DNA of 55,754 bases from Nanobdellota archaeon (lineage in GTDB: Archaea > Nanobdellota > Nanobdellia > Woesearchaeales > JAHJEM01). The translations under genes were made by a program, and so were the position numbers. Where the stretch lies: assembly GCA_043825215.1 (NCBI GenBank), contig JBDRSD010000063.1, positions 1 to 55,754 on the forward strand. Direction: 5' to 3'. A model generated the notes under the pieces. That model saw only the letters and a program-made list of their open reading frames with translations. It searched no databases and was not told the DNA's origin. Below, in pieces: positions 1,782 to 55,515 of the stretch (position 1 is its first letter; every line of letters starts with the position of its first letter).

Positions 1782-1800
1782 GATGAGTCCGACTGGATTT
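1782..1800 (-). repeat. decayed copy of tRNA-Lys(CTT) 3' end (distal att remnant)
   Basis: gatgagtccgactggattt matches 15176-15194 at 18/19. Confidence 0.75.
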
Positions 1801-4827: not shown

Positions 4828-4945
4828 AAACTGCAAAACGAAGAATCAAATACTGTCAACGATGAATGACAGATGAGACCGGCTGGATTGCAGCCTTTCG
4901 AAGCTAGCTAAGCGATACCCGGCAGGATTCTCACTTGCGGTTCAA

Positions 4946-5077
4946 TCACACGAAAAAACTGAGTCCGACGGGAAAAGGAGGTGAACCCTGCGGCACTGAC
5001 GACGATAAACTTTCATTAGTAGAAATTGTCGTTTTCGTTTCTGAACCCGTACTATTGAACCTATTTGAGTTTGTCAT
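4946..5077 (-). CDS. Int(N): N-terminal fragment of the split integrase (43 aa as integrated)
   Basis: GGAGGT RBS then ATG at 5077; reads MTNSNRFNSTGSETKTTISTNESLSSSVPQGSPPF-PVGL, crossing the att core in the same frame as the PVGL of the integrase ORF. Confidence 0.75.
   Translation of the reverse strand: MTNSNRFNSTGSETKTTISTNESLSSSVPQGSPPFPVGLSFFV
4997..5049 (+). repeat. putative integrase arm-type sites, left end
   Basis: tgacgacgataaa (4997-5009) and ctgaacccg (5041-5049) recur at 15146-15158 and 15115-15123. Confidence 0.65.
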
Positions 5078-14287: not shown

Positions 14288-15191
14288 TCATCGTATTATC
14301 TGCCACAGCTGAGCTAGCTTCTTCATATCCTCCTTTTCTCTCATGTCGTCTTTAAGGTTCTTCTCGAATACCTTATCCATTGACATATCCAAATCATTCT
14401 GAGAGGAATGGATGTATACTTGCGTACTTTTTATTGACGTATGTCTAGCTAACTTCTGAGCCACTATGGGGTCTTTTGTTCCCTTGTAAACTCTTGTTAT
14501 GAAATAGTGTCGGAGTGAATGCGTTGTCAGTCGGTAGAGCTTCCTGCTTTGTTTAACATAGCTTTCCTCGCTACGTCCATAATTCTCATTCATTCCTGAC
14601 AATACACAGACGTCCCTGAACGTATTTCTAAGCCAATGTGGACTAATATGTTCTTCCCTATTCCAATCACTCTCTGAGTAGAGAATGTGTCCAGAATGGG
14701 CTTGTATTGCGTTTAGGTGCAAGTCTACCCACGTCTTAAGAGGTTGATATATTTCGTCGTGAAGATAGAGGGTATCACCTGTTCTTGCTTTCTCAGTCAA
14801 TACATGGATTTTCCTTCTGGGGAAGTCGATATCATCCAATCGAATCTTGACTACTTCACCCACTCTCAACCCAAGATTAGCCATTAACCGATAAGCCATA
14901 TTTGCCTTGGGATTCAGGCAATAGGAAAGGAACGTCCTCAGTTCTTCATCAGTGAATCCCTTGTTAATATTCCCGTACTTCGGATTCTTCGGTTTCTTGA
15001 ACTTCTTTCTCATCATTTCCTGTACTGCTCCTTGTATTTCTTCAAGCCGATGTTTTGGTAGCATCCCTAAGAATTCCTTGCTAATCAAATATTGGAAGTT
15101 TTCGTACCCTGTACCTGAACCCGAATCTGTTAAAGAAATCTCATTTGACGACGATAAAACTGCGTGAGGGGAACAGATGAGTCCGACGGGA
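14288..15191 (-). CDS. tyrosine integrase, Int(C) fragment (internal Met at 15064)
   Basis: GLRVGE, TEKAR, HSLRH, ARH, TQVY catalytic residues; frame open up to and through the att core. Confidence 0.93.
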
Positions 15192-15295
15192 TTTGAACCC
15201 GCGGCCACTCGATTACTTCAACCGAAGGGCGAAGGATTGACGACGCCAGTCGGCAATAAGAGTCGAGTGCTCTAACCAGGCTGAGCTACGGACCC
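15178..15295 (-). tRNA. tRNA-Lys(CTT), 43-nt intron at 37/38 (15214-15256)
   Basis: GGGTCCG/CGGACTC acceptor stem, CTCGA anticodon stem, CT-CTT-A|A loop, GTTCAAATC T-loop. Confidence 0.95.
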
Positions 15296-16934: not shown

Positions 16935-17085
16935 GCCGCAGTCGCATAACCTGAGTAATACGTGCCAACTCGCCGTGGCGTGGCGAAGCGGGCATTACGC
17001 AAGCGTAAGCCCACTTAGTGGTTGTTCTTTTGTGAAGTTTTAAAAATAAGCTGTATTCACTGTCTTCCTATGCCGCAGTCGCATA
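16935..17085 (+). repeat. two copies of the tRNA-Ser(CGA) 5' end
   Basis: gccgcagtcgcataacctg (16935-16953) and gccgcagtcgcata (17072-17085), each about 25 nt after a tttaaaaa box. Confidence 0.85.
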
Positions 17086-17137
17086 CGCATCGAACACGTT
17101 CGCTGGTCACGACAGCGCATGTATAAGAATTAATTTT

Positions 17138-17220
17138 GCCGCAGTCGCATAACCTGGTATTGCGTCAGTCTCGAAAACTGATTCCGTAAGGAATTCCCAG
17201 TTCAAATCTGGGCTGCGGCG
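17138..17220 (+). tRNA. tRNA-Ser(CGA), intronless
   Basis: GCCGCAG/CTGCGGC acceptor, TCAGT-CTCGAAA-ACTGA anticodon arm, long variable arm TTCC-GTAA-GGAA, G73. Confidence 0.95.
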
Positions 17221-17366
17221 TCATTAATTCTCGTAAGACATAGGAGGCGATATCTATAATTTGAACTGGGCATCGTGAACTCGTTCACGTTATGTCCAGT
17301 TCAAATCTACTTGCGAATTTTATTCGCAAATTGCCAGCAACGAAGTTGCTGAGCAGGGCTGCGGTG
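17221..17366 (+). mobile_element. 99-bp tRNA 3' mini-element, family A (Ser copy), duplicated 3' end interrupted by a 47-nt hairpin insert
   Basis: ccagttcaaatct at 17197 and 17296 (period 99); 17259-17308 is 45/50 identical to the reverse complement of 35461-35510. Confidence 0.75.
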
Positions 17367-17371
17367 TGTTT

Positions 17372-39209: not shown

Positions 39210-39356
39210 GGGGCTGTAGTGTAGCTTGGCCAGCGGCAATCCAGAATTGCCTGGGTTGCTCTGTGAGCAACTATCACTGGCCCTTGGGGTGGCATTAAAG
39301 CCTATGTTTGTGCTTCCACAATGGGTCCAACCGGGGTTCGAATCCTCGCAGCCCCA
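39210..39356 (+). tRNA. tRNA-Pro(GGG), two introns: D-loop 41 nt (39230-39270) and 37/38 32 nt (39290-39321)
   Basis: GGGGCTG/CAGCCCC acceptor, GGCCC/GGGTC stem; BHB helix GCTT/GAGC. Confidence 0.9.
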
Positions 39357-39451
39357 GTTTTTTCGTGGAACTTCGAACGTATGTGAGAATGTTCCACTGG
39401 GTGTCGCTTATCAGCGGCGAAAGGCTGCGTTCCTGTATCCTTGCAGCCCCA
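39357..39451 (+). mobile_element. 95-bp tRNA 3' mini-element, family B (Pro copy)
   Basis: atccttgcagcccca (39437-39451) repeats 39342-39356 at 14/15; architecture shared with 47112-47202. Confidence 0.7.
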
Positions 39452-47011: not shown

Positions 47012-47111
47012 AGCCCCGTAGTGTAGCGGTCAAAACACAGGTGACCAATCATCCTGGCCTTTGGACAATGGAAGAAAGCCAGGGACTCCGGTTCGAATCC
47101 GGACGGGGCTA
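47012..47111 (+). tRNA. tRNA-Gln(TTG), two introns: 21/22 15 nt (47034-47048) and 37/38 12 nt (47065-47076)
   Basis: A1-U72 AGCCCCG/CGGGGCT acceptor; BHB helices GGTC/GACC and CTTT/GAAG. Confidence 0.92.
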
Positions 47112-47202
47112 GTTTTTTTTCGTGGGGTTGAGTGAAGCGAAATCCCACCGGGTTCTGTATTGTCCAGGCGGAACTGGACGTTCTTGTATCCGGACGGGGC
47201 TA
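47112..47202 (+). mobile_element. 91-bp tRNA 3' mini-element, family B (Gln copy)
   Basis: atccggacggggcta at 47097 and 47188, perfect 15-bp repeat. Confidence 0.75.
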
Positions 47203-47247: not shown

Positions 47248-49098
47248 TCACAAGTGCAGGCCTTCTGAAGAACTCATGCCTTTAATGGTTTTCTCCACTC
47301 CTCCCAAAAAATCCTGAACCCTTCTTTGATAATCTGCGGGTTTTGTCGTGACATAGCTATGCATCCTCTCTACTAATGAATTCTTCAGTTTATCAATGGG
47401 TGTACCTTGTAACTCTTCGTATTGGAGTCGTACGTGTGCGGAAAGGTCATGCTGATACGTGCCATTCTTGGTGATCTCAGCCAAATGATAGCCATATATT
47501 CCGAATTTGATGGCATCAGAAATTCTGCCAGGATACTTCAACAACGTCTTTCCTAAGAATCTCAGGTAATTTGGCCCCATTTTCTTCGAAAACAGCTGGA
47601 CAGACCGCATGACTGCAAAAAGATCCTCTTTTTTCCTTATAGTGCGTGAGTGTCTTCCTCTTTGATGCTCAAACATCGTCAATACACGCTCAAAATAGCT
47701 TCCCAAGTCTGGACTATAGAGCCTGTGCAGCAACCCAGTATATTCTCTTGCCAAGACAGCCGTGTCCATTGTTGTCAGAAAATTTGTAGTATCACTTTGG
47801 GTGTTGCTTCCATCGCAACTCTTCGTGAGCCGTCCTTCTTCTTCCATCCTTTCATACAGCGCAGTCCCAGGCCCTGCTCTCAGTAACCCGACCATCGCAA
47901 CAGGTATGCCTGACTCTTGCACAAGACGTTCCTGCCAACCGAAAATTCTTTCATCATCAGAATCAAAGCCTATGATAAACCCGCCAGTCACTTCGACATA
48001 TCGCTGGAGGATCTTCACCTTTTCAACAATCTCTTCAATTTTACTCTCAGGATCAACTTCTGAACTGACATTGAACCTTTTTCCCGTTTCTGCAAGACTT
48101 TTCGGATTTGGAGTCTCGATCCCCACGAAAATCACCTGTCCGCCAGCCCGCACATAATTTCTTAACATACCCTCGTTATTGGCAATGTTCAATGAAATTT
48201 CTGCATGCAAAGCAAAGGGATGTCCCCTTTCCTGCTGAAACTTGGCGACTCTATCAAAGATGGCATTTGCAGATTTTGGCATCCCGATCGGATTATCGTC
48301 TGCAAGGACAACATTTCCTCTCCAGCCCAGCGTATAAAGAGTTCCAAAATCATCAACAATATCCTGGCTTGGCCTGTATCTTGTTTTCGGCCCGAACAAG
48401 GTCGCAACATCACAGAACTCGCAACCACCAGGACAGCCTCTTGAGAATTGCAGTATCATAGAGTCATACGCATCCATTGTCACGAGATCATATCTTGCCC
48501 TGGGCGGGTCTATTGCACGAGAAAAATCAAGCACTTTCGCATCGACATCTTGTCCTTCGAACTGCTTTAGAATTCTTTCCAGGCTCTCATGATTAGGTGT
48601 TCTTGAATACATGTTTTTTAAATGTCCCTGCTGAAGATCATTGATGACCAAGGGAACGGTGTTTTCACCTTCGTTCAGCACCCATACAACCTTATCGACA
48701 ATGTCATCAAGAATTCCATTTTCTGCGTCAAAGTACTTGGTCGCATACGGTCCTCCGAACAGGATTGTCTTCTGCTGCGCTGAAATTCTTTGGATCAATT
48801 CCCTTATGGATTGCGTCTGCACCATTATCCCGGATAACAGGACGATATCTGACCTTGCAATCCTCTCATCAGTGAGAGGCTCAATGTTCGTATCAATAAG
48901 CGAGCAATGGTAATTCTCAGGCAATAATCCTGCAACAGTTATCAGCCCCAAAGGAGGACTCGGGGCACGCTTACCCACGAATTTGAGCGCCCGCTCAAAC
49001 CCCCAATACGTATCTTTAGGGTTTTGTGGATACACAAGAGTGACTTTCACATCATCTCCTGATACGGTTTTTTCAAGCAACCCTTCTGTAATTATCAT
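47248..49098 (-). CDS. B12-binding radical SAM protein (DUF4070-type C-terminus)
   Basis: PPLGLITVA, GGPY, SRGCPGGCEFC, GIETP, GFIIGFDSD. Confidence 0.9.
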   Translation of the reverse strand: MIITEGLLEKTVSGDDVKVTLVYPQNPKDTYWGFERALKFVGKRAPSPPLGLITVAGLLPENYHCSLIDTNIEPLTDERIARSDIVLLSGIMVQTQSIRELIQRISAQQKTILFGGPYATKYFDAENGILDDIVDKVVWVLNEGENTVPLVINDLQQGHLKNMYSRTPNHESLERILKQFEGQDVDAKVLDFSRAIDPPRARYDLVTMDAYDSMILQFSRGCPGGCEFCDVATLFGPKTRYRPSQDIVDDFGTLYTLGWRGNVVLADDNPIGMPKSANAIFDRVAKFQQERGHPFALHAEISLNIANNEGMLRNYVRAGGQVIFVGIETPNPKSLAETGKRFNVSSEVDPESKIEEIVEKVKILQRYVEVTGGFIIGFDSDDERIFGWQERLVQESGIPVAMVGLLRAGPGTALYERMEEEGRLTKSCDGSNTQSDTTNFLTTMDTAVLAREYTGLLHRLYSPDLGSYFERVLTMFEHQRGRHSRTIRKKEDLFAVMRSVQLFSKKMGPNYLRFLGKTLLKYPGRISDAIKFGIYGYHLAEITKNGTYQHDLSAHVRLQYEELQGTPIDKLKNSLVERMHSYVTTKPADYQRRVQDFLGGVEKTIKGMSSSEGLHL

Positions 49099-49350
49099 TT
49101 GTCAATCACACTCTTTTGTTTTTCACGTTCCACTCGTCATGCATAAGACAAATCTTGTGCAAAGAGAGAGAACAGCACATTCAGCACTTGCTTTTGGGGC
49201 AATCTCCCCGATAAAGCGAAGAAAAACAAGATTATATCCGTGTCGCATAACACAGTTATTCCATCAACATTTATAAATATTCCTGGCAAACAAAGGAATC
49301 TTTATTCGGGAATACAGACTTTATGCAAGAATGCACCACTCATTGCATCT

Positions 49351-49442
49351 AATAGCAAATCGCATTGATTTTGGAACTTTGATTTTGCGATTTGCTATTT
49401 AGTAAATCTCCCAACTTGTTCATTAATTTTGGGGATTTACTA
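49351..49442. repeat. two adjacent inverted repeats
   Basis: aatagcaaatcgca/tgcgatttgctatt (14 bp perfect) and tagtaaatc/gatttacta. Confidence 0.8.
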
Positions 49443-49473
49443 TAACATGGGAAATGATACAATGCATTATCTT

Positions 49474-49495
49474 GGTTCGAATCCGGCCGGGGCTA
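49474..49495 (+). repeat. copy of tRNA-Gln 3' end (att remnant)
   Basis: 21/22 identical to 47090-47111. Confidence 0.85.
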
Positions 49496-49761
49496 TGTAT
49501 ATTTTGGTGATCCTAAGGGACTCTTTTTTTCAGAAAGCCTGAATTTAAGAGTCTTGATCACCTCTTTTATGTTTTGACAATCGTATTCTCTCAGGAGTCG
49601 TTCCTTTTCTCTGAGTGAGAATTCTTCATCCAAGAATTTCATGTGGTATCACCAAAGACCTTATGGCCTTGATGATGTTTGAGGGTATGTCTGATTTTGT
49701 ATATATGAAATTAGTTGATTTAGTAATAAGATTTAAGTATTGTATTTGGTTTCTCATTGAT

Positions 49762-51567
49762 ATGAATGATGAGGAGAAGCAGCTTCAATTTGTCATGGAT
49801 TGGTTTCCAGTAAGACCTCGGTTAAGCAGAATTATTAAATCAATAGTGAGGGGCAGGTTAGAGAGACTTGAAATTAGTTCATTTGATGAAATCTATGAAT
49901 CTGTTGGTTTGTTGGTAGAGGAGTTTGATGACAAATCTTATCATCTTCGATCGCTTAACGCTCCTTATTCTCCCGATGATTCAAGAACGCCTATTGAAGT
50001 AACTCCTTTTCGAGAACAAACTCGAGAATCACGGAGTCTATTATCAGATTTGACCCGAAGGTTAGATGGACGGATTTCATCAGATGCAATGAATGTTCTC
50101 TCTCAGTTAGAAAGGTCAGATATTTTTTGTGTTGTGTTTGGAGTACCAGTTGATATTGACGTTTCTCTGATAGAGTCACGCCTTGAAGAGATTGCTGTTT
50201 TGCTGGCACCAAATGGGTATGTGCCTGAGCGTCCAATAAAATCAGTTTCATTCTCTCCTCTAAAGATTACGTTCAGAAGGAGGTCATATGATGGCAATCC
50301 TTATAGAATTGTGGAAGAGAATCCTGAGAAATACGGAAATTTACGACGGTGGGAGTTGGGAAAATTTGATCCTGCTTTATATGAGGCGTTGCATAATCAT
50401 GATCAGATTCACCTAATTCCTAGAGAAAGAAGGTTTTTTGGTAATCTTCTAACATTTTTGCGAGCAAAATATGGTGATCTAACAAGAGGTCAGATTGCTC
50501 TGCGTGATCCCCCTTTTTACAATGCATTGAGAAAGTCAGGAAAAATCGAGTGGGTGGGATATAAACATCGACGATTTAATGGTAATCCAAAGGCATATTT
50601 TAATGAGAAATTAAGTGAATTGTCCGTAAAGCGAAGGTCTGACTTAATGAAAAAGGATAGATCTCTTCTTGAGGCGATGAGACGGTCAGGACAACTTGAT
50701 GAAGTATTACCTGCAGATCCCAAACGACATGCTGCGGGAAAAAAATCAGGAACCATAAGAAATTCCCCGAAGAAGATAGAAGAAATAATATCTGCATTCG
50801 AAACGTATCAAGGAAATTCGAGAGAAGCGTCAACGAACCTCTCCGTAAGTCCATCGACTATCAGAAGATATTGGCGAGAAGCAGGCCTTTACACTCCCAA
50901 TAAATTACCTTCTTCTCGCAGTCATGGTTTATCCCCTTCTCAGGTAAAAATGGTAACAGATTCTCACGCAACATATCAGGGGAATGCGACTGAGGCTAGC
51001 AATCATCTTCCGTTCTCAAGATGGACAATAGGAAAATATTGGAAAGAAGAAGGACTTGAACATATCGTAAAAGGAAATCCCACATCACAAGATGAACGAA
51101 CAAGAATCATTTCTGCTTATGATGAATATGACGGTAATCTTTCTGCTGCAACAAGGGAACTTCCCTATACTAGGACAATTATTCGAAGGATTTGGGAAGA
51201 AGAACATCTGCAAGCAAAGGGAAAAGAGTCAGGACCAATACTTAATGATCGAGAAAAGCAAGAAATCTTAGACGCCTATGATTTGTATGATGGTCATCCT
51301 TCATTAGCAGCCTCAGGTCTTAACCGTTCATTCAGAACAGTAAGAAAAATGTGGGATGCTGCAGGACTTCAAGTAAATAATGACTACTCTGCTCAACGAT
51401 TACCAGAAGAAGGAATTGAGGTCATTTGTGAGGCGCATACCACTTTTAATGGTAACGCTTCAGAAGTAGCTCGTAATATTCCATATAACCGAGCCACTAT
51501 CTCTAAATATTGGCGAGAAAATGGTCTGGTCAGTAAAGGGAAGCGAACCAGGAAAAAAATAATGTGA
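49762..51567 (+). CDS. multi-repeat putative DNA-binding protein (3 + 5 helical repeats)
   Basis: five repeats I.SA..Y.GN...A...L..S..TI..YW...GL and three GN....Y..L.R......D...Y.AL repeats. Confidence 0.8.
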   Translation: MNDEEKQLQFVMDWFPVRPRLSRIIKSIVRGRLERLEISSFDEIYESVGLLVEEFDDKSYHLRSLNAPYSPDDSRTPIEVTPFREQTRESRSLLSDLTRRLDGRISSDAMNVLSQLERSDIFCVVFGVPVDIDVSLIESRLEEIAVLLAPNGYVPERPIKSVSFSPLKITFRRRSYDGNPYRIVEENPEKYGNLRRWELGKFDPALYEALHNHDQIHLIPRERRFFGNLLTFLRAKYGDLTRGQIALRDPPFYNALRKSGKIEWVGYKHRRFNGNPKAYFNEKLSELSVKRRSDLMKKDRSLLEAMRRSGQLDEVLPADPKRHAAGKKSGTIRNSPKKIEEIISAFETYQGNSREASTNLSVSPSTIRRYWREAGLYTPNKLPSSRSHGLSPSQVKMVTDSHATYQGNATEASNHLPFSRWTIGKYWKEEGLEHIVKGNPTSQDERTRIISAYDEYDGNLSAATRELPYTRTIIRRIWEEEHLQAKGKESGPILNDREKQEILDAYDLYDGHPSLAASGLNRSFRTVRKMWDAAGLQVNNDYSAQRLPEEGIEVICEAHTTFNGNASEVARNIPYNRATISKYWRENGLVSKGKRTRKKIM

Positions 51568-51844
51568 GTACAGAGCAACTCAAGGACATTCTCAAATGTC
51601 GAGAAGCATTTGGTAAAAAAATAGATATTATTTGATATCATGTTTACGCAGTCCCATCAGGCCAATATCCATGCCTAATACGCAAGAATTCTTGCGTTTC
51701 CGCCGTTTTCCAGGCCTAAATTCTGCCCGTTACTATGTCTTCCCCTATCTGGGAAAACGGGCCTGGATAAGTCGTGGAATGTCTGATCTGATGAGTGTTG
51801 GGGTGTGTGAGTTTGTAAATCGAAACATTTAAATAGAAGTATCA

Positions 51845-51870
51845 CTAAAATAGCTAAATTGGCTATTTAG
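51845..51870. promoter_or_regulatory. inverted repeat in the second AbiE promoter
   Basis: ctaaaatagct-aaat-tggctatttag between the TATA box and the ATG. Confidence 0.5.
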
Positions 51871-51879
51871 GCGTTATTA

Positions 51880-52380
51880 ATGGAGTCGCTGTCAAAAAAG
51901 GAAGTTGAAGTCATTGCAAACCTAGAATTCAGTAAGAAGTATTTCTTCACAAGAACTGACATTAAGGAATTCTTTAGCAGTGTGCAACAGATCAATGATT
52001 TTATCTTTGGCCTGAAAAATAAAAAAAGGATCATCAAACTAAATAAGAGAAAATATTATCTTATCCCCATAAAAGCCCGAAGCGGAGGCTGGTCAGAGCA
52101 CCCATTCATAATAGCAGACGAGCTGTGTGATGGAAAAGACTATGTTATCGGAGGGTGGGCTGCAACAAAGTACTGGAAACTCACAGACCAGATTCCAGCA
52201 CAAACTGACATCTATACGACAAGAAGACAAGGAAAAATCAGCATTATGAACTCTCGTTTCGTATTCCATAGGACCACAAAAGAAAAAATAAATAGAGGAA
52301 TCAAAAAAGAAGTAGAAGGACACCCATTCAAGATTCTACCTAAACAAGAGGCAGCAGCATGGTACCAGAAGAGACGGTAA
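51880..52380 (+). CDS. AbiEi-like antitoxin
   Basis: paralog of 22505-23005; GGWAATKYWKLTDQIP. Confidence 0.85.
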   Translation: MESLSKKEVEVIANLEFSKKYFFTRTDIKEFFSSVQQINDFIFGLKNKKRIIKLNKRKYYLIPIKARSGGWSEHPFIIADELCDGKDYVIGGWAATKYWKLTDQIPAQTDIYTTRRQGKISIMNSRFVFHRTTKEKINRGIKKEVEGHPFKILPKQEAAAWYQKRR

Positions 52381-53141
52381 ATAAGGACTTCATCGCAGAC
52401 CTCGTTGCAAGAACGCACTTCAACCAGGTCTTGCTCGCCAAAGACTACTACCTCACAAAAATGCTGTATGCCATAAAAGATGTCAAAGGAATCTATTTCA
52501 AAGGCGGAACTGCATTAAACAAAATATTTCTTGACCACGCTAGGCTAAGTGAGGATATTGATTTCACCCTCACTGAAGATGTCAGAAAGAAACAAGCAGA
52601 ACTCACAAGAATCCTCAAAAAACAACCATTCATAACAAAAATAACAGAGGACAAATCAGTCGAAGGATTCATACGGATGGTAAACCATTACACGAATTTC
52701 TCAGGCGAAGAAGACACCATATTCATAGACCTCAACCAAAGAGGAAAGCTCCTCACCAAACCAGAAAGTCACACCCTACCTCACTTTTACCCAGATATAC
52801 CATCATTTACAATATACACACTCTCACAAGAAGAGATGATAGCAGAAAAAGTCGCGGCAGCAATAGGCAGGAACCGTCCACGAGACCATTATGATATCTA
52901 CCAGATAATCAAGCATGACCTGCCAATAAACATGAAACTGGTAGAACAAAAATGCAAGGATTCTGGCGATGAATTCAGCATAATAAAGATGTTTAACAAG
53001 GCCAAAAAGCTCAAAAATCGTTGGGAAGAAGACATGATACCCCTACTCCCAAAACCAGAATCATTCGCAGAAATCATAAAATTCCTCGCACAACACTTCC
53101 ACCTCAAAGAAGCAAAAGAAGAAAAAAAAGATAACAAGTGA
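52359..53141 (+). CDS. AbiEii-like nucleotidyltransferase toxin
   Basis: KDYY, FKGGTAL, RLSEDID, AEK, RPRDHYD. Confidence 0.9.
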   Translation: MVPEETVNKDFIADLVARTHFNQVLLAKDYYLTKMLYAIKDVKGIYFKGGTALNKIFLDHARLSEDIDFTLTEDVRKKQAELTRILKKQPFITKITEDKSVEGFIRMVNHYTNFSGEEDTIFIDLNQRGKLLTKPESHTLPHFYPDIPSFTIYTLSQEEMIAEKVAAAIGRNRPRDHYDIYQIIKHDLPINMKLVEQKCKDSGDEFSIIKMFNKAKKLKNRWEEDMIPLLPKPESFAEIIKFLAQHFHLKEAKEEKKDNK

Positions 53142-53193
53142 TATACATCCTCCGACAAGAGGAGTCCTCCACGATCATCTCATTACCCCACCC

Positions 53194-53206
53194 CCGGGCG
53201 GGGCTA
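53194..53206 (+). repeat. decayed tRNA-Gln 3' end
   Basis: ccgggcggggcta, 12/13 to 47099-47111; intergenic. Confidence 0.55.
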
Positions 53207-53242
53207 GTCATTTTTTATCCTGATGACGGGGGTGGCTGGAGT

Positions 53243-53318
53243 TTGTTCCAGTGAGGGAACAACTGTTTTATATGTGGAACAATCAAGATAAAAAAATATT
53301 TAAAGGAACAATCGTTCC
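53243..53318. promoter_or_regulatory. GGAACAA operator-like repeats
   Basis: ggaacaa at 53256, 53276 and 53305; imperfect palindrome ggaacaatcgttcc at the start of the gene. Confidence 0.55.
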
Positions 53319-53876
53319 ATGGATGATATGCTTGAAAAATACGCCCTTTTTACTGTATTCAGGACATTACGGGAGACAGATACCGAAGAATCCATAAGGT
53401 CCCTTTCCCGGAAGGCCAATGTTGGGGTTGCGACAGCAAAACGCTGCATTGACTACCTTTATGAGAAGAATATCGTCAAGAGAAAGATCATAGGAAATCT
53501 CCATCAATATTCTCTTGATAATGAAAGTCTGCTCACCAGGCAATTGAAGATTGCCATGACGTCTGCAGACATAGTAGAATCAGGGCTTGTCGAAGAGATT
53601 GCAAAAAAATATCCTGAAATACACTCCATCGTCTGGTATGGATCGACAGCAATCGGAACAGACTCGCCGCAGAGCGACATTGATATCGCAGTGATAGCAA
53701 GGGCCCCTTTGAGGCTCAAGCCTTTGTCTGCTGAAACAAGACTGAAGAGAGAAGTATCATTGTCTTCCTTCACTTTGCAGGAATGGAGAAAAAAAGCCCG
53801 GACCGACAAGGCATATTATGACGCAGTCATTATCGACGGGATATGCATTCATGGGGAAATGCCGGTGGTGGTCTGA
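53319..53876 (+). CDS. HTH-MNT antitoxin
   Basis: SIRSLSRKANVGVATA HTH; WYGSTAIG..SDIDIAV. Confidence 0.88.
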   Translation: MDDMLEKYALFTVFRTLRETDTEESIRSLSRKANVGVATAKRCIDYLYEKNIVKRKIIGNLHQYSLDNESLLTRQLKIAMTSADIVESGLVEEIAKKYPEIHSIVWYGSTAIGTDSPQSDIDIAVIARAPLRLKPLSAETRLKREVSLSSFTLQEWRKKARTDKAYYDAVIIDGICIHGEMPVVV

Positions 53877-54298
53877 TGGACGTCAATGAATGCCTTGAAA
53901 AGGGTCTGCTGAAAAAGGAAACGCCTGACAAGAGAAAAGCAGATAAGTCCATAGAAGTTGCAGTCTACAAGCTTGAGCGGGCAAGAAAACTCCTTGAATT
54001 GGGCATGTTCGAGGAGACCATACTCAACGGCTATGCTGCATTGTTCCACGCGGGAAGAGCAATTCTCTTCAGGGATGGCATCAGGGAAAAAAGCCACTAT
54101 GCCCTCTTCGTGTACCTCAAAGAAAAATACTCGGACAAGCTTGAACGTCGGTTCCTGAATGAGCTGAATTCATATCGGCTTGAACGCCATGACATCAGCT
54201 ACGGCCTGGAAAAACCGCAAATAGGCAAGGAAGAAGCAGAGCACATCGTCGAAGCTGCGAAAAATTTTATCAATGCCACGAAGAAAATGATTGCCTGA
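53876..54298 (+). CDS. HEPN-domain toxin
   Basis: YAALFHAGRAIL..KSH..RHDISY. Confidence 0.88.
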   Translation: MDVNECLEKGLLKKETPDKRKADKSIEVAVYKLERARKLLELGMFEETILNGYAALFHAGRAILFRDGIREKSHYALFVYLKEKYSDKLERRFLNELNSYRLERHDISYGLEKPQIGKEEAEHIVEAAKNFINATKKMIA

Positions 54299-54324
54299 AA
54301 CAATTCAAGACAGCCCATCGGCAT

Positions 54325-54346
54325 CGGTTCGAATCCTGGCGGAGCA
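54325..54346 (+). repeat. decayed tRNA 3' end (Gln- or Glu-like)
   Basis: cggttcgaatcctggcggagca, T-arm plus acceptor strand with no upstream tRNA body. Confidence 0.65.
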
Positions 54347-54444
54347 GGTTTTTTAACGACAATCTTTTCTTCACTTCTCATGTGGACCTTCCAACCGAAA
54401 ACTATAATAGCCAGTGCATGAGTACTTTCTTCTGGGGTGTTTGC

Positions 54445-55515
54445 ATGCGAATCGAAAATGACGTGAAGCTTGATTTTGAGGATGTTCTGATACGGCCAAA
54501 ACGAAGCACGCTGACAAGCAGGGCAGAAGTCTCTCTCGAGAGATCATTCACCTTCCTGCACAGCCATCGCACATGGACAGGAATTCCGATCGTTGCAGCG
54601 AACATGGACTCGAGCGGAACATTCGAGATGGCAGAGGCACTTGCACAGCATAAGATGCTCACTGTTCTCCACAAATTCTACAACGTGAAAGAACTGGCAA
54701 TATTCTTGCCGAAATTCAACAAGCCAGACTATGTCTCCTACTGTGTGGGCATCCGCGACGAAGACTTTGCAAAACTCAAAGAAGTTATGAACAAGGGATT
54801 GCATAAGCATTTCAACTTCATCTGCCTTGATGTTCCCAATGCGTACCTGGAATCTGTTGTCAAGAAACTCAGGGAATTACGAAAACTCTTACCCTCCCAC
54901 ACGATCATCGCAGGAAACGTTGTCACAAACGAGATGACAGAAGAACTCCTCCTCTCAGGTGCTGACATCGTAAAAGTGGGCATAGGGCCTGGAAGCATGT
55001 GCCTCACCAGAAGAAAGACGGGAGTTGGCTATCCGCAGCTTTCTGCGACAATCGAATGCGCAGATGCGGCCCATGGCATCGGAAGCAATGGCGGCTGTGG
55101 ACTCATCATGTCAGACGGAGGCGCAAGATACCCTGCAGACGTCGCCAAAGCCTTTTGCGGCGGAGCAGACTTTCTCATGAGCGGAAGCCTCTTTTCCGGA
55201 AACGACCAATCTGGCGGAAAACTCATCACAAAAGACGGCAAGAAATTCAAAGAATGCTACGGCTCCAGTTCCGACGTTGCCATGAAACGGCATTATGGAA
55301 AGGTCGAAAAACACCGCACATCAGAAGGCAGATACTCCCTCATTCCCTACAAGGGAAATGTCAACGATTTTATCCTTGACCTCCTCGGAAGCTTGCGCAG
55401 TACGGCAACATACATCGGCGCACGACGCCTTAAAGAATTCTCCAAGCGCGCAACATTCATCATGGTTGGTAGACAACTCAATACAAGCCTTGAACAGTAC
55501 GACGCAAGGGAATAA
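54445..55515 (+). CDS. guaC: GMP reductase
   Basis: KLDFEDVLIRPKRSTL.SR, AANMD, KVGIGPGSMC.TR..GVGYPQLSA. Confidence 0.95.
   Translation: MRIENDVKLDFEDVLIRPKRSTLTSRAEVSLERSFTFLHSHRTWTGIPIVAANMDSSGTFEMAEALAQHKMLTVLHKFYNVKELAIFLPKFNKPDYVSYCVGIRDEDFAKLKEVMNKGLHKHFNFICLDVPNAYLESVVKKLRELRKLLPSHTIIAGNVVTNEMTEELLLSGADIVKVGIGPGSMCLTRRKTGVGYPQLSATIECADAAHGIGSNGGCGLIMSDGGARYPADVAKAFCGGADFLMSGSLFSGNDQSGGKLITKDGKKFKECYGSSSDVAMKRHYGKVEKHRTSEGRYSLIPYKGNVNDFILDLLGSLRSTATYIGARRLKEFSKRATFIMVGRQLNTSLEQYDARE

Follow-up and report, generated by a model that had tools for sequence, protein, structure and literature searches.

Partial copies of transfer RNA (tRNA) genes mark integrated elements (PMC9897764). Tyrosine-integrase elements of archaea and bacteria that belong to the T-loop/3'-end tRNA class have attL and attR boundaries of which one is an intact tRNA and the other a partial copy that extends as far as the tRNA 3' end. 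Their repeats begin in the T-loop, elements stand in stacked arrays, and the archaeal examples described span 9-23 kb (PMC8371274, PMC9897764; Williams 2002, as cited in PMC8371274). We examine here a far smaller insert of similar outline, the Family B cassette, in a 55,754-nucleotide contig of a small groundwater archaeon of the Nanobdellota (JBDRSD010000063.1, contig C63; "the window" denotes this whole stretch). Family B shares with those elements the intact tRNA and its partial copy, the T-loop start of the repeat and the stacking, and its genome also has inserts with an integrase gene at other tRNAs; unlike them, it measures about 80 nt, holds no gene, and repeats one frame at six tRNAs with exchangeable hairpin modules. 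At roughly even odds (a probability of about 0.5), we read the cassette as a miniature, non-autonomous insert of the tRNA-targeting integrative-element kind, which restores the tRNA that it enters and supplies its own oligo-T terminator.

Palindrome-associated transposable elements (PATE) derived from IS200/IS605 insertion sequences (IS), like repetitive extragenic palindromic (REP) sequences and bacterial interspersed mosaic elements (BIME), are moved by Y1 transposases of the HUH type and are short, gene-free, hairpin-defined and modular. Family B has the same four properties and its genome encodes Y1 transposases, but insertion of PATE, REP and BIME sequences entails no duplication and shows no link to tRNA ends, and no co-occurrence with Y1 genes is seen here across relatives. 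Fujishima in 2010 and Randau and Soll in 2008 reportedly also described delivery of archaeal tRNA introns and fragments by mobile elements. In the model of Sugahara et al. 2012 (PMC3293823, as summarised in PMC8371274), archaeal tRNA genes receive introns and fragments from mobile elements; the summary matches our case in having partial tRNA copies beside an intact gene and T-loop inserts in a tRNA copy, to which we can compare a look-alike of Family B hairpin 1 in T-loop insertions of relatives' intact tRNA genes, but the model as outlined there depends on a 1.8-kb recombinase-bearing element at a single locus, whereas here hairpin cassettes of 50-200 nt occur at many tRNAs. Casposons, in the passages of PMC4779613 on target sites, make 14-bp target duplications, insert at a tRNA-Leu gene and stack in tandem arrays with a shared duplicated site, and in these respects they resemble Family B, but Family B has no genes and no terminal inverted repeats, and the genome has no Cas1. 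Searches of the full-text literature, supplementary tables not included, yielded no description of hairpin mini-inserts at DPANN tRNA genes. What is new is not the attachment-site footprint, which is known, but the small size of the insert, its lack of genes, its modular hairpins and its link to T-loop insertions. Integrated viruses and plasmids classically leave partial tRNA copies as their footprint, and here such copies bound gene-free inserts of about 80 bases at many tRNAs; if the cassettes move, they would be among the smallest site-specific mobile DNAs known, and their acquisition of the end of each new tRNA would need explaining.

The source genome is a 1.74-Mb assembly of 98 contigs (46% G+C, 94% complete), the tRNA genes of which contain several introns each and do not encode CCA. 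Anticodons of intron-bearing genes were assigned by parsing them by hand; ARAGORN and Rfam miss or mis-call these genes. Within the window ARAGORN detects one tRNA, Rfam three at its gathering threshold, and our own T-arm/acceptor scan with hand reading at least seven, spare tRNA ends and multi-intron genes together defeating standard tRNA finders. The first two cassettes, B1 and B2, were read directly and scored with a covariance model:

39210-39356, plus strand: tRNA-Pro(GGG), host gene of B1, 147 nt, with introns in the D-loop and the anticodon loop; anticodon parsed by hand
39342-39356, plus strand: proximal repeat copy, the last 15 nt of tRNA-Pro, ATCCTCGCAGCCCCA; the working copy
39357-39436, plus strand: Family B cassette B1, 57.6 bits
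39358-39363 (T6), 39364-39368 (CGTGG) and 39365-39397 (hairpin 1), plus strand: left end of B1, opening with G
39394-39402 (CCACTGGGT), 39403-39418 (hairpin 2, then GAAAGGCTG) and 39428-39436 (CGTTCCTGT), plus strand: right part of B1
39437-39451, plus strand: distal copy of the tRNA-Pro 3' end, ATCCTTGCAGCCCCA, with one C-to-T mismatch that weakens the T-stem
47012-47111, plus strand: tRNA-Gln(UUG), host gene of B2, 100 nt with introns
47097-47111, plus strand: proximal repeat copy, the last 15 nt of tRNA-Gln
47112-47187, plus strand: Family B cassette B2, 56.7 bits
47121-47125 (CGTGG) and 47122-47148 (hairpin 1), plus strand: left end of B2, opening with G and T8
47145-47153 (CCACCGGGT), 47162-47179 (hairpin 2) and 47179-47187 (CGTTCTTGT), plus strand: right part of B2
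47188-47202, plus strand: distal copy of the tRNA-Gln 3' end, ATCCGGACGGGGCTA, exact

A preliminary description of this DNA had drawn one layout for both sites: T-run, CGTGG, hairpin, CCACYGGGT, second hairpin, CGTTCYTGT and a tRNA copy from ATCC to the discriminator base. This layout is present at tRNA-Pro and tRNA-Gln alike; the units measure 95 nt (B1) and 91 nt (B2) with the repeat, as that description had given them, and 76-80 nt without it; the T-loop sequence TTCGAATCC that it assigned to both tRNAs occurs in both; and hairpin interiors do differ between B1 and B2 while the frame is kept, yet this is weak evidence for selection on pairing. The full-frame pattern matches twice in the window against 0.00 expected from 100 dinucleotide-preserving shuffles. 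Neither cassette has a real open reading frame (ORF), those across B1 being mechanical frames that run through the tRNA. The host tRNA-Pro(GGG), with a promoter-like TTTAAAAA upstream, pairs in the acceptor (GGGGCTG/CAGCCCC) and T-arm (CGGGG-TTCGAAT-CCTCG).

Across the whole genome the full-frame pattern has three matches, the third being at another tRNA on contig C72, and a pattern for the left half (T-run and hairpin 1) has five. A covariance model of this left half, R1, built on six copies (B1-B6), gives exactly six strong hits in the source genome (56.7-66.8 bits), the next best scoring 18.4 and 15.6 bits. All six abut the 3' end of a tRNA or a copy of one, at six different tRNAs, which bears out the earlier suggestion of a repeat family tied to tRNA genes; an intact tRNA stands directly 5' of four of them (Pro-GGG, Gln-UUG, Arg-UCG on C72 by our own reading, and Pro-UGG). 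The remaining copies are:

Contig C72: B3, behind the tRNA read as Arg(UCG)
Contig C39: B4, behind tRNA-Pro(UGG), with a longer right half
Contig C43: B5, 85 nt behind tRNA-Met and after another cassette, with a 43-nt two-hairpin module nested in hairpin 2
4874-4959, minus strand: B6, the sixth copy, decayed, R1 score 59.5 bits; on this strand it reads T6, CGTGTG hairpin 1, CTGCCGGGT, hairpin 2 remnant, GGCTGC
4889-4874, minus strand: closing repeat of B6, AATCCAGCCGGTCTCA, degenerate, 12 of 16 positions matching tRNA-Lys

Every copy is closed by 15-16 nt of its own host tRNA, from T-loop position 58/59 to the discriminator, and in all six a T-run follows the discriminator directly. Five of the distal copies have 1, 0, 1, 1 and 0 mismatches and that of B6 has 4 in 16; the changes are C-to-T or G-to-A and weaken or break tRNA pairs. 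In the proximal copies, pairing with the 5' strands of acceptor and T-stem is as it should be. In the same-genus genomes G177 and G240, tRNA-Pro(GGG) has CCTCG, identical to the proximal version. Because the proximal copy pairs properly, relatives have its version and the T-run separates the two copies, the distal copy is a displaced, decaying spare, and the working tRNA ends in the proximal copy.

Family B forms the small end of a size series of inserts bounded by tRNA ends in this genome. A genome scan for T-arm/acceptor structures found 45 candidates, some of which are not tRNAs; 14 of the 45 have a downstream copy of their 13-nt 3' end (at most one mismatch, within 20 kb), nine of them within 300 nt, against a chance expectation that we estimate at about 0.5 over all 45. 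The inserts so bounded range from about 80 nt to 10 kb, several of them stand stacked in arrays, and two have a tyrosine integrase gene beside the tRNA. One of these lies directly behind tRNA-Glu on contig C64, with the repeat 6.1 kb downstream; the other belongs to the tRNA-Lys array of the window, in which a 10.2-kb integrase island is followed by B6 and then by a 3.1-kb segment, the repeats standing 10.2 and 13.4 kb downstream of the tRNA:

15178-15295, minus strand: tRNA-Lys(CUU) with intron, head of the array (Rfam tRNA, 56.5 bits)
14288-15208, minus strand: tyrosine recombinase (integrase) gene directly behind tRNA-Lys (PF00589, E 8.6e-21; phrog_216 integrase)
4960-4973, minus strand: second copy of the tRNA-Lys 3' end, TCCCGTCGGACTCA, closing the 10.2-kb island directly before B6
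1784-1796, minus strand: further copy of the tRNA-Lys 3' end

The integrase is also XerA-like, with a score below the cut-off of that model, and its true start is probably further in, since the listed ORF start overlaps tRNA-Lys. Repeats that bound the integrase islands (14 and 16 nt) and repeats that bound the mini-cassettes share the region of the T-loop in which they begin, and a CGT(T/G) word stands 3-10 nt left of the junction in 12 of 17 right junctions listed by hand, including that of the 6-kb integrase element, the 17 representing only some 5-6 independent families. The tRNA-Gln array likewise continues beyond B2, with a 2.3-kb and then a 3.7-kb segment, each closed by a repeat copy:

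49474-49495, plus strand: third copy of the tRNA-Gln 3' part, GGTTCGAATCCGGCCGGGGCTA, one mismatch, closing the 2.3-kb segment, which has a minus-strand radical-SAM gene
53194-53206, plus strand: fourth copy, CCGGGCGGGGCTA, closing the 3.7-kb segment, which encodes a 650-aa protein with multiple helix-turn-helix (HTH) motifs and contains an AbiEii gene

The outermost of these copies (53194-53206) has CCGGG, as does tRNA-Gln of the relatives G293 and G084.

Beyond the source genome, exact patterns and the covariance model differ in reach. The exact left-half pattern occurs in 3 of 300 other genomes of the order, once each and with no tRNA-like flank. The full-frame pattern occurs elsewhere in five genome-contig and three metagenome-contig stretches; of the six inspected (all but L022 and L023), none is flanked by tRNA-like sequence and five have a high GC content (0.58-0.67). 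Outside the source genome the exact pattern is all but absent; such patterns are too strict, because the covariance model later found relatives. With E values of up to 0.1 accepted, R1 hits 19 of 150 relatives, and among the 17 loci inspected, four lie behind a tRNA 3' end or its copy (L030 and L042 of genome G301, L036 of G240, L033 of G047). At L042 two B-type cassettes are stacked behind tRNA-Pro, and at L036 an 815-nt insert separates tRNA-Gln(CUG) from a canonical B cassette. At a further locus, L041 (G301:C69:16650-17451, reverse strand), an inverted B-type cassette lies upstream of a tRNA gene, and the direct repeats on either side of it are antisense copies of the first 22 nt of this tRNA. 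At eight of the 17 no tRNA is detectable by ARAGORN or Rfam, both of which intron-rich tRNAs can escape. Absence from other tRNA loci and related genomes, or occurrence mostly away from tRNAs, had been named as what would speak against the motif: related cassettes do occur at tRNA genes of two same-genus genomes, G240 and G301, so for the whole cassette the objection falls, but hairpin 1 by itself occurs without a detected tRNA in other families of the order.

Orthologous tRNA-Pro(GGG) genes of G177 and G240 and tRNA-Gln genes of G293 and G084 have no B cassette. Outside the source assembly, a contig from a run of another study covers all of B1 with two substitutions, both in hairpin 1, one of which breaks a pair. 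No joint that skips B1 or B2 was seen in the contigs of four DNA runs, contigs being assemblies that drop rare variants. Another contig, from a run of another study (run X2), leaves the reference at 39363, after the T-run of tRNA-Pro, and continues into unrelated sequence, which could be a cassette-less allele or the tRNA-Pro of another organism. In two of the relatives, other features adjoin the orthologous genes: a partial 5'-end copy about 126 nt upstream of the tRNA-Gln of G084 (L020, G084:C25), behind the only clear promoter box, and five hairpins in a closed chain, unaccompanied by a tRNA repeat, after the tRNA-Pro(GGG) of G240 (L010, G240:C45).

Hairpin 1 also has look-alikes inside tRNA genes of more distant relatives. 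At three of the 17 loci (L043 and L044 of G047, L046 of G105) an antisense look-alike lies in a T-loop insertion of an otherwise intact tRNA gene; these insertions are 108-119 nt long, sit between the T-loop and the 3' T-stem strand, and when removed by script leave tRNAs that ARAGORN accepts. L045 resembles these loci on its unmasked side, and a fourth such gene is the tRNA-Gly(UCC) of G047, with an insertion of roughly 190 nt that by our own reading holds similar hairpins. In all four genes (L043, L044, L046 and L048; Ala-GGC, Gly-GCC, Pro-CGG and Gly-UCC) the insertion follows T-loop nucleotide 60 and ends in GRAAAGT, and the insertions are built from the hairpin-1 look-alike and further hairpins. 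They are probably T-loop introns; their minimum-energy folds have no clear bulge-helix-bulge (3-4-3) motif, and no second tRNA-Gly(GCC) gene was found in G047, which is 76% complete. It is possible, though doubtful, that the hairpin cassettes constitute a distinct class of very small mobile DNA specialised on DPANN tRNA genes, in which one set of modules would take three forms (at a tRNA 3' or 5' end with a duplicated end; as a stand-alone multi-hairpin element; and inside the T-loop, as in G047 and G105, where splicing would be needed) and would provide, through insertion and recombination between duplicated ends, a route to non-canonical introns and fragmented tRNA genes. The look-alike in T-loops suggests a concrete, testable connection of mobile DNA with non-canonical tRNA introns and split tRNA genes, whose rise and spread in Archaea lack an explanation.

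The hairpins themselves are real, but the case for selection on their pairing is weak. Over the six copies of hairpin 1, 95% of the pair cells are paired, compared with 44-64% when the partner strand is slid; only two pairs have changed on both sides, 46 of 500 shuffles reach the observed covariation score, and DNA folding z-scores are -0.9 to -1.8. Rfam has no match for the cassette, either in the window at the gathering threshold, where only three tRNAs score, or in permissive searches of the B1 region and the loci of relatives. A kink-turn (K-turn) or K-loop reading of hairpin 1 was dropped when a check by hand found no 3-nt bulge ahead of the G-A pairs. The loop plan of hairpin 1, GA-NN-GNA-NN-GA, recurs in the arms of multi-hairpin elements (28 hairpins against 6-16 in shuffles). 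In the preliminary description Family B was a second, independent family, with a putative crossover point of its own, among several classes of putatively parasitic element at tRNA genes. Several families of tRNA-flanking mini-inserts do exist in the genome, on C37 and C73, at 35549 and behind tRNA-Ser, and on C76 and C5, but independence fails: Family B is a mosaic, in which B3 equals B4 at 29 of 29 nt on the left and B1 at 92% of 39 nt on the right. Manual alignment further shows that the opening hairpin of another family, taken as its reverse complement, is similar to hairpin 2 in B2 and B5. The 43-nt two-hairpin module is found in both orientations, on C43 and C90, and by manual comparison it occupies the same spot of a hairpin in both.

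How would such a cassette arrive? On the reading that we favour, it would enter by the same kind of site-specific recombination in the T-loop/3' part of the tRNA gene as an integrative element does; the incoming DNA would bring a replacement tRNA 3' end together with its own terminator, and the old end would be pushed outward. Archaeal RNA polymerase terminates at T-runs, so the oligo-T run after the discriminator would end transcription of the tRNA. Since the cassette encodes nothing, it would be moved in trans by a resident recombinase or be a fossil of such events, and its hairpins would be interchangeable modules in common with other cassettes in the genome and across the order. As at attachment sites, the direct repeats consist of an intact tRNA and a partial copy that reaches the tRNA 3' end, and the integrase reading fits published knowledge (PMC8371274, PMC9897764).

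Several observations weigh against this reading. There is no integrase gene inside the cassette, such genes being found only in kilobase-scale inserts at other tRNAs; no B copy contains or adjoins one, and no integrase-bearing element of the genome has B-type ends. Circles of about 90 bp would lie at or below the lower size limit for excision by simple tyrosine recombinases. The contigs of the four runs reveal no excised form, empty allele or circle junction, and the empty sites of relatives are orthologous tRNAs rather than syntenic ones, because their flanks cannot be aligned with the source genome. The repeat is not one conserved recombination core, since the G301 cassette is flanked by 22-nt antisense repeats of a tRNA 5' end. 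One frame at six tRNAs, each with a host-specific repeat, does not easily fit a carried attachment site, and a target-site duplication would fit it; integrase action leaves unexplained both the six different tRNA ends and the 5'-end repeats of G301, which duplication by cutting and filling would explain.

That alternative, a true transposable mini-element, we consider unlikely. Staggered cuts in the T-loop and just past the tRNA end would be followed by gap repair that duplicates 15-24 nt, as in the target-site duplication of casposons or the repeat duplication of CRISPR. Besides the single frame with its host-specific repeats and the precedent of casposons, it accounts for the near-constant length of the repeat (15-16 nt in B1-B6 and the G240 copy) and, with G301, for the use of any terminal piece of a tRNA gene as repeat. 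By our own count, B3, B4 and the G240 copy each show likeness between the copies at 6 of 8 positions of the T-rich trailer as well, but B1 and B6 at only 2 of 8, and this likeness may be one of composition only, because T-rich trailers are common to all tRNA genes. No candidate enzyme was found: Cas1 (PF01867), and with it a casposase, has 0 matches in the genome, in a search whose control hits 7 of 14 known genomes. Family B has no visible terminal inverted repeats; by our own reading the T-run and CGTGG of its left end do not recur in inverted form in the CGTTCYTGT of its right end, as they would in a miniature inverted-repeat transposable element (MITE). Nor can a single duplication give the family on C37 and C73 (family C), because host-specific T-stem sequence lies on both sides of its hairpin pair.

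It is quite improbable that the hairpins derive from IS200/IS605-type elements, as ends or relics in the manner of PATE and REP, and that Y1 (HUH) transposases moved them as folded single strands with the T-loop as cleavage or target site. The genome has five Y1_Tnp matches, one of them in a gene just behind tRNA-Ser(GCT); one IS has at its right end a 9-bp hairpin that shows the loop plan of hairpin 1 and is followed by an 8-nt tail with GTTC like that after hairpin 2 of Family B; and modules occur in both orientations and in stand-alone multi-hairpin elements. IS200/IS605 elements make no target duplication, however, and Family B has one of 15 nt; R1 does not hit the IS ends; Y1_Tnp and R1 do not co-occur (Y1_Tnp in 7 of 19 relatives with an R1 hit and 46 of 131 without); and G240 (81% complete) and G301 (71%), both with clear B-type cassettes, have no Y1 match.

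Also very improbable is the proposal that the cassette serves the tRNA locus, as a terminator or insulator, a small structured RNA or a protein-binding site, and is kept by selection instead of being selfish DNA. The T-run right after the discriminator in all six copies, the recurrence of the hairpin 1 stem (GTGGGATT/AATCCCAC) and loop plan in several families of the order, and the retention of B1 in a strain from another study would agree with it, but most tRNA genes of the genome and the orthologous tRNAs of relatives manage without a cassette, no promoter precedes it and the T-run does, there is no Rfam match and covariation and folding energy are weak, both substitutions of the other strain fall in hairpin 1, where one breaks a pair, and the spare tRNA end is left unexplained. 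An RNA-mediated origin through reverse transcriptase, of which the genome has three genes (RVT_1; C84:14504-15148, C78:1331-1945, C2:755-1366), was dropped because the repeats lack CCA and are in sense orientation. Family B is not a bulge-helix-bulge intron either: it lies outside the tRNA, a T6-T8 run would fall inside the intron, and the proximal copy makes the better tRNA end. An integron integrase has no TIGR02249 match in the genome at the 265-bit cut-off; the highest-scoring locus, on C44, matches in two pieces (101 and 78 bits), neither of which covers model positions 180-237.

Some neighbouring elements deserve description in their own right. Three contigs of the source genome (G000), C30 (13854-14152), C31 (16242-16540) and C23 (11700-12139), end inside the same IS200/IS605-type element with a Y1 transposase; at its right end this element has a hairpin, the loop of which reads GAGCGCAGCGA, and then TAGTTCAC. 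The Y1 element just behind tRNA-Ser(GCT), on contig C27, is a different one and has complex end hairpins. The multi-hairpin elements, about 150-180 nt with a long closing stem, are found in G000 at C28:1040-1260 and C20:22000-22260 and on C13, C44, C54, C65 and C78; one arm has the loop plan of hairpin 1 and the other arms match modules of the tRNA mini-inserts.

Behind tRNA-Gln, the region 47248-55515 encodes the radical-SAM/DUF4070 protein, the 650-aa multi-HTH protein and the AbiEii toxin, with a nucleotidyltransferase/HEPN pair just outside the last tRNA-Gln repeat, and forms a small island of defence and toxin-antitoxin genes. The multi-HTH protein (49615-51567) was rejected as a recombinase, having only weak HTH matches.

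Two further tRNA genes of the window carry inserts of other families. On the minus strand (region 35702-35450), a multi-intron tRNA of 154 nt, probably Tyr(GUA), is followed by a 99-nt insert, at the end of which the entire T-arm and 3' end are repeated in a 24-nt copy; the TTTTCGTGGGATTTGA after this copy resembles a decayed left end of Family B. On the plus strand, tRNA-Ser(CGA) (17138-17220; region 16935-17371) has partial 5'-end copies upstream at 16935 (19 nt) and 17072 (14 nt), each behind its own promoter-like TTTAAAAA box, and a downstream mini-insert in which the spare 3' end is split by a 46-nt two-hairpin module at roughly 17309-17354.

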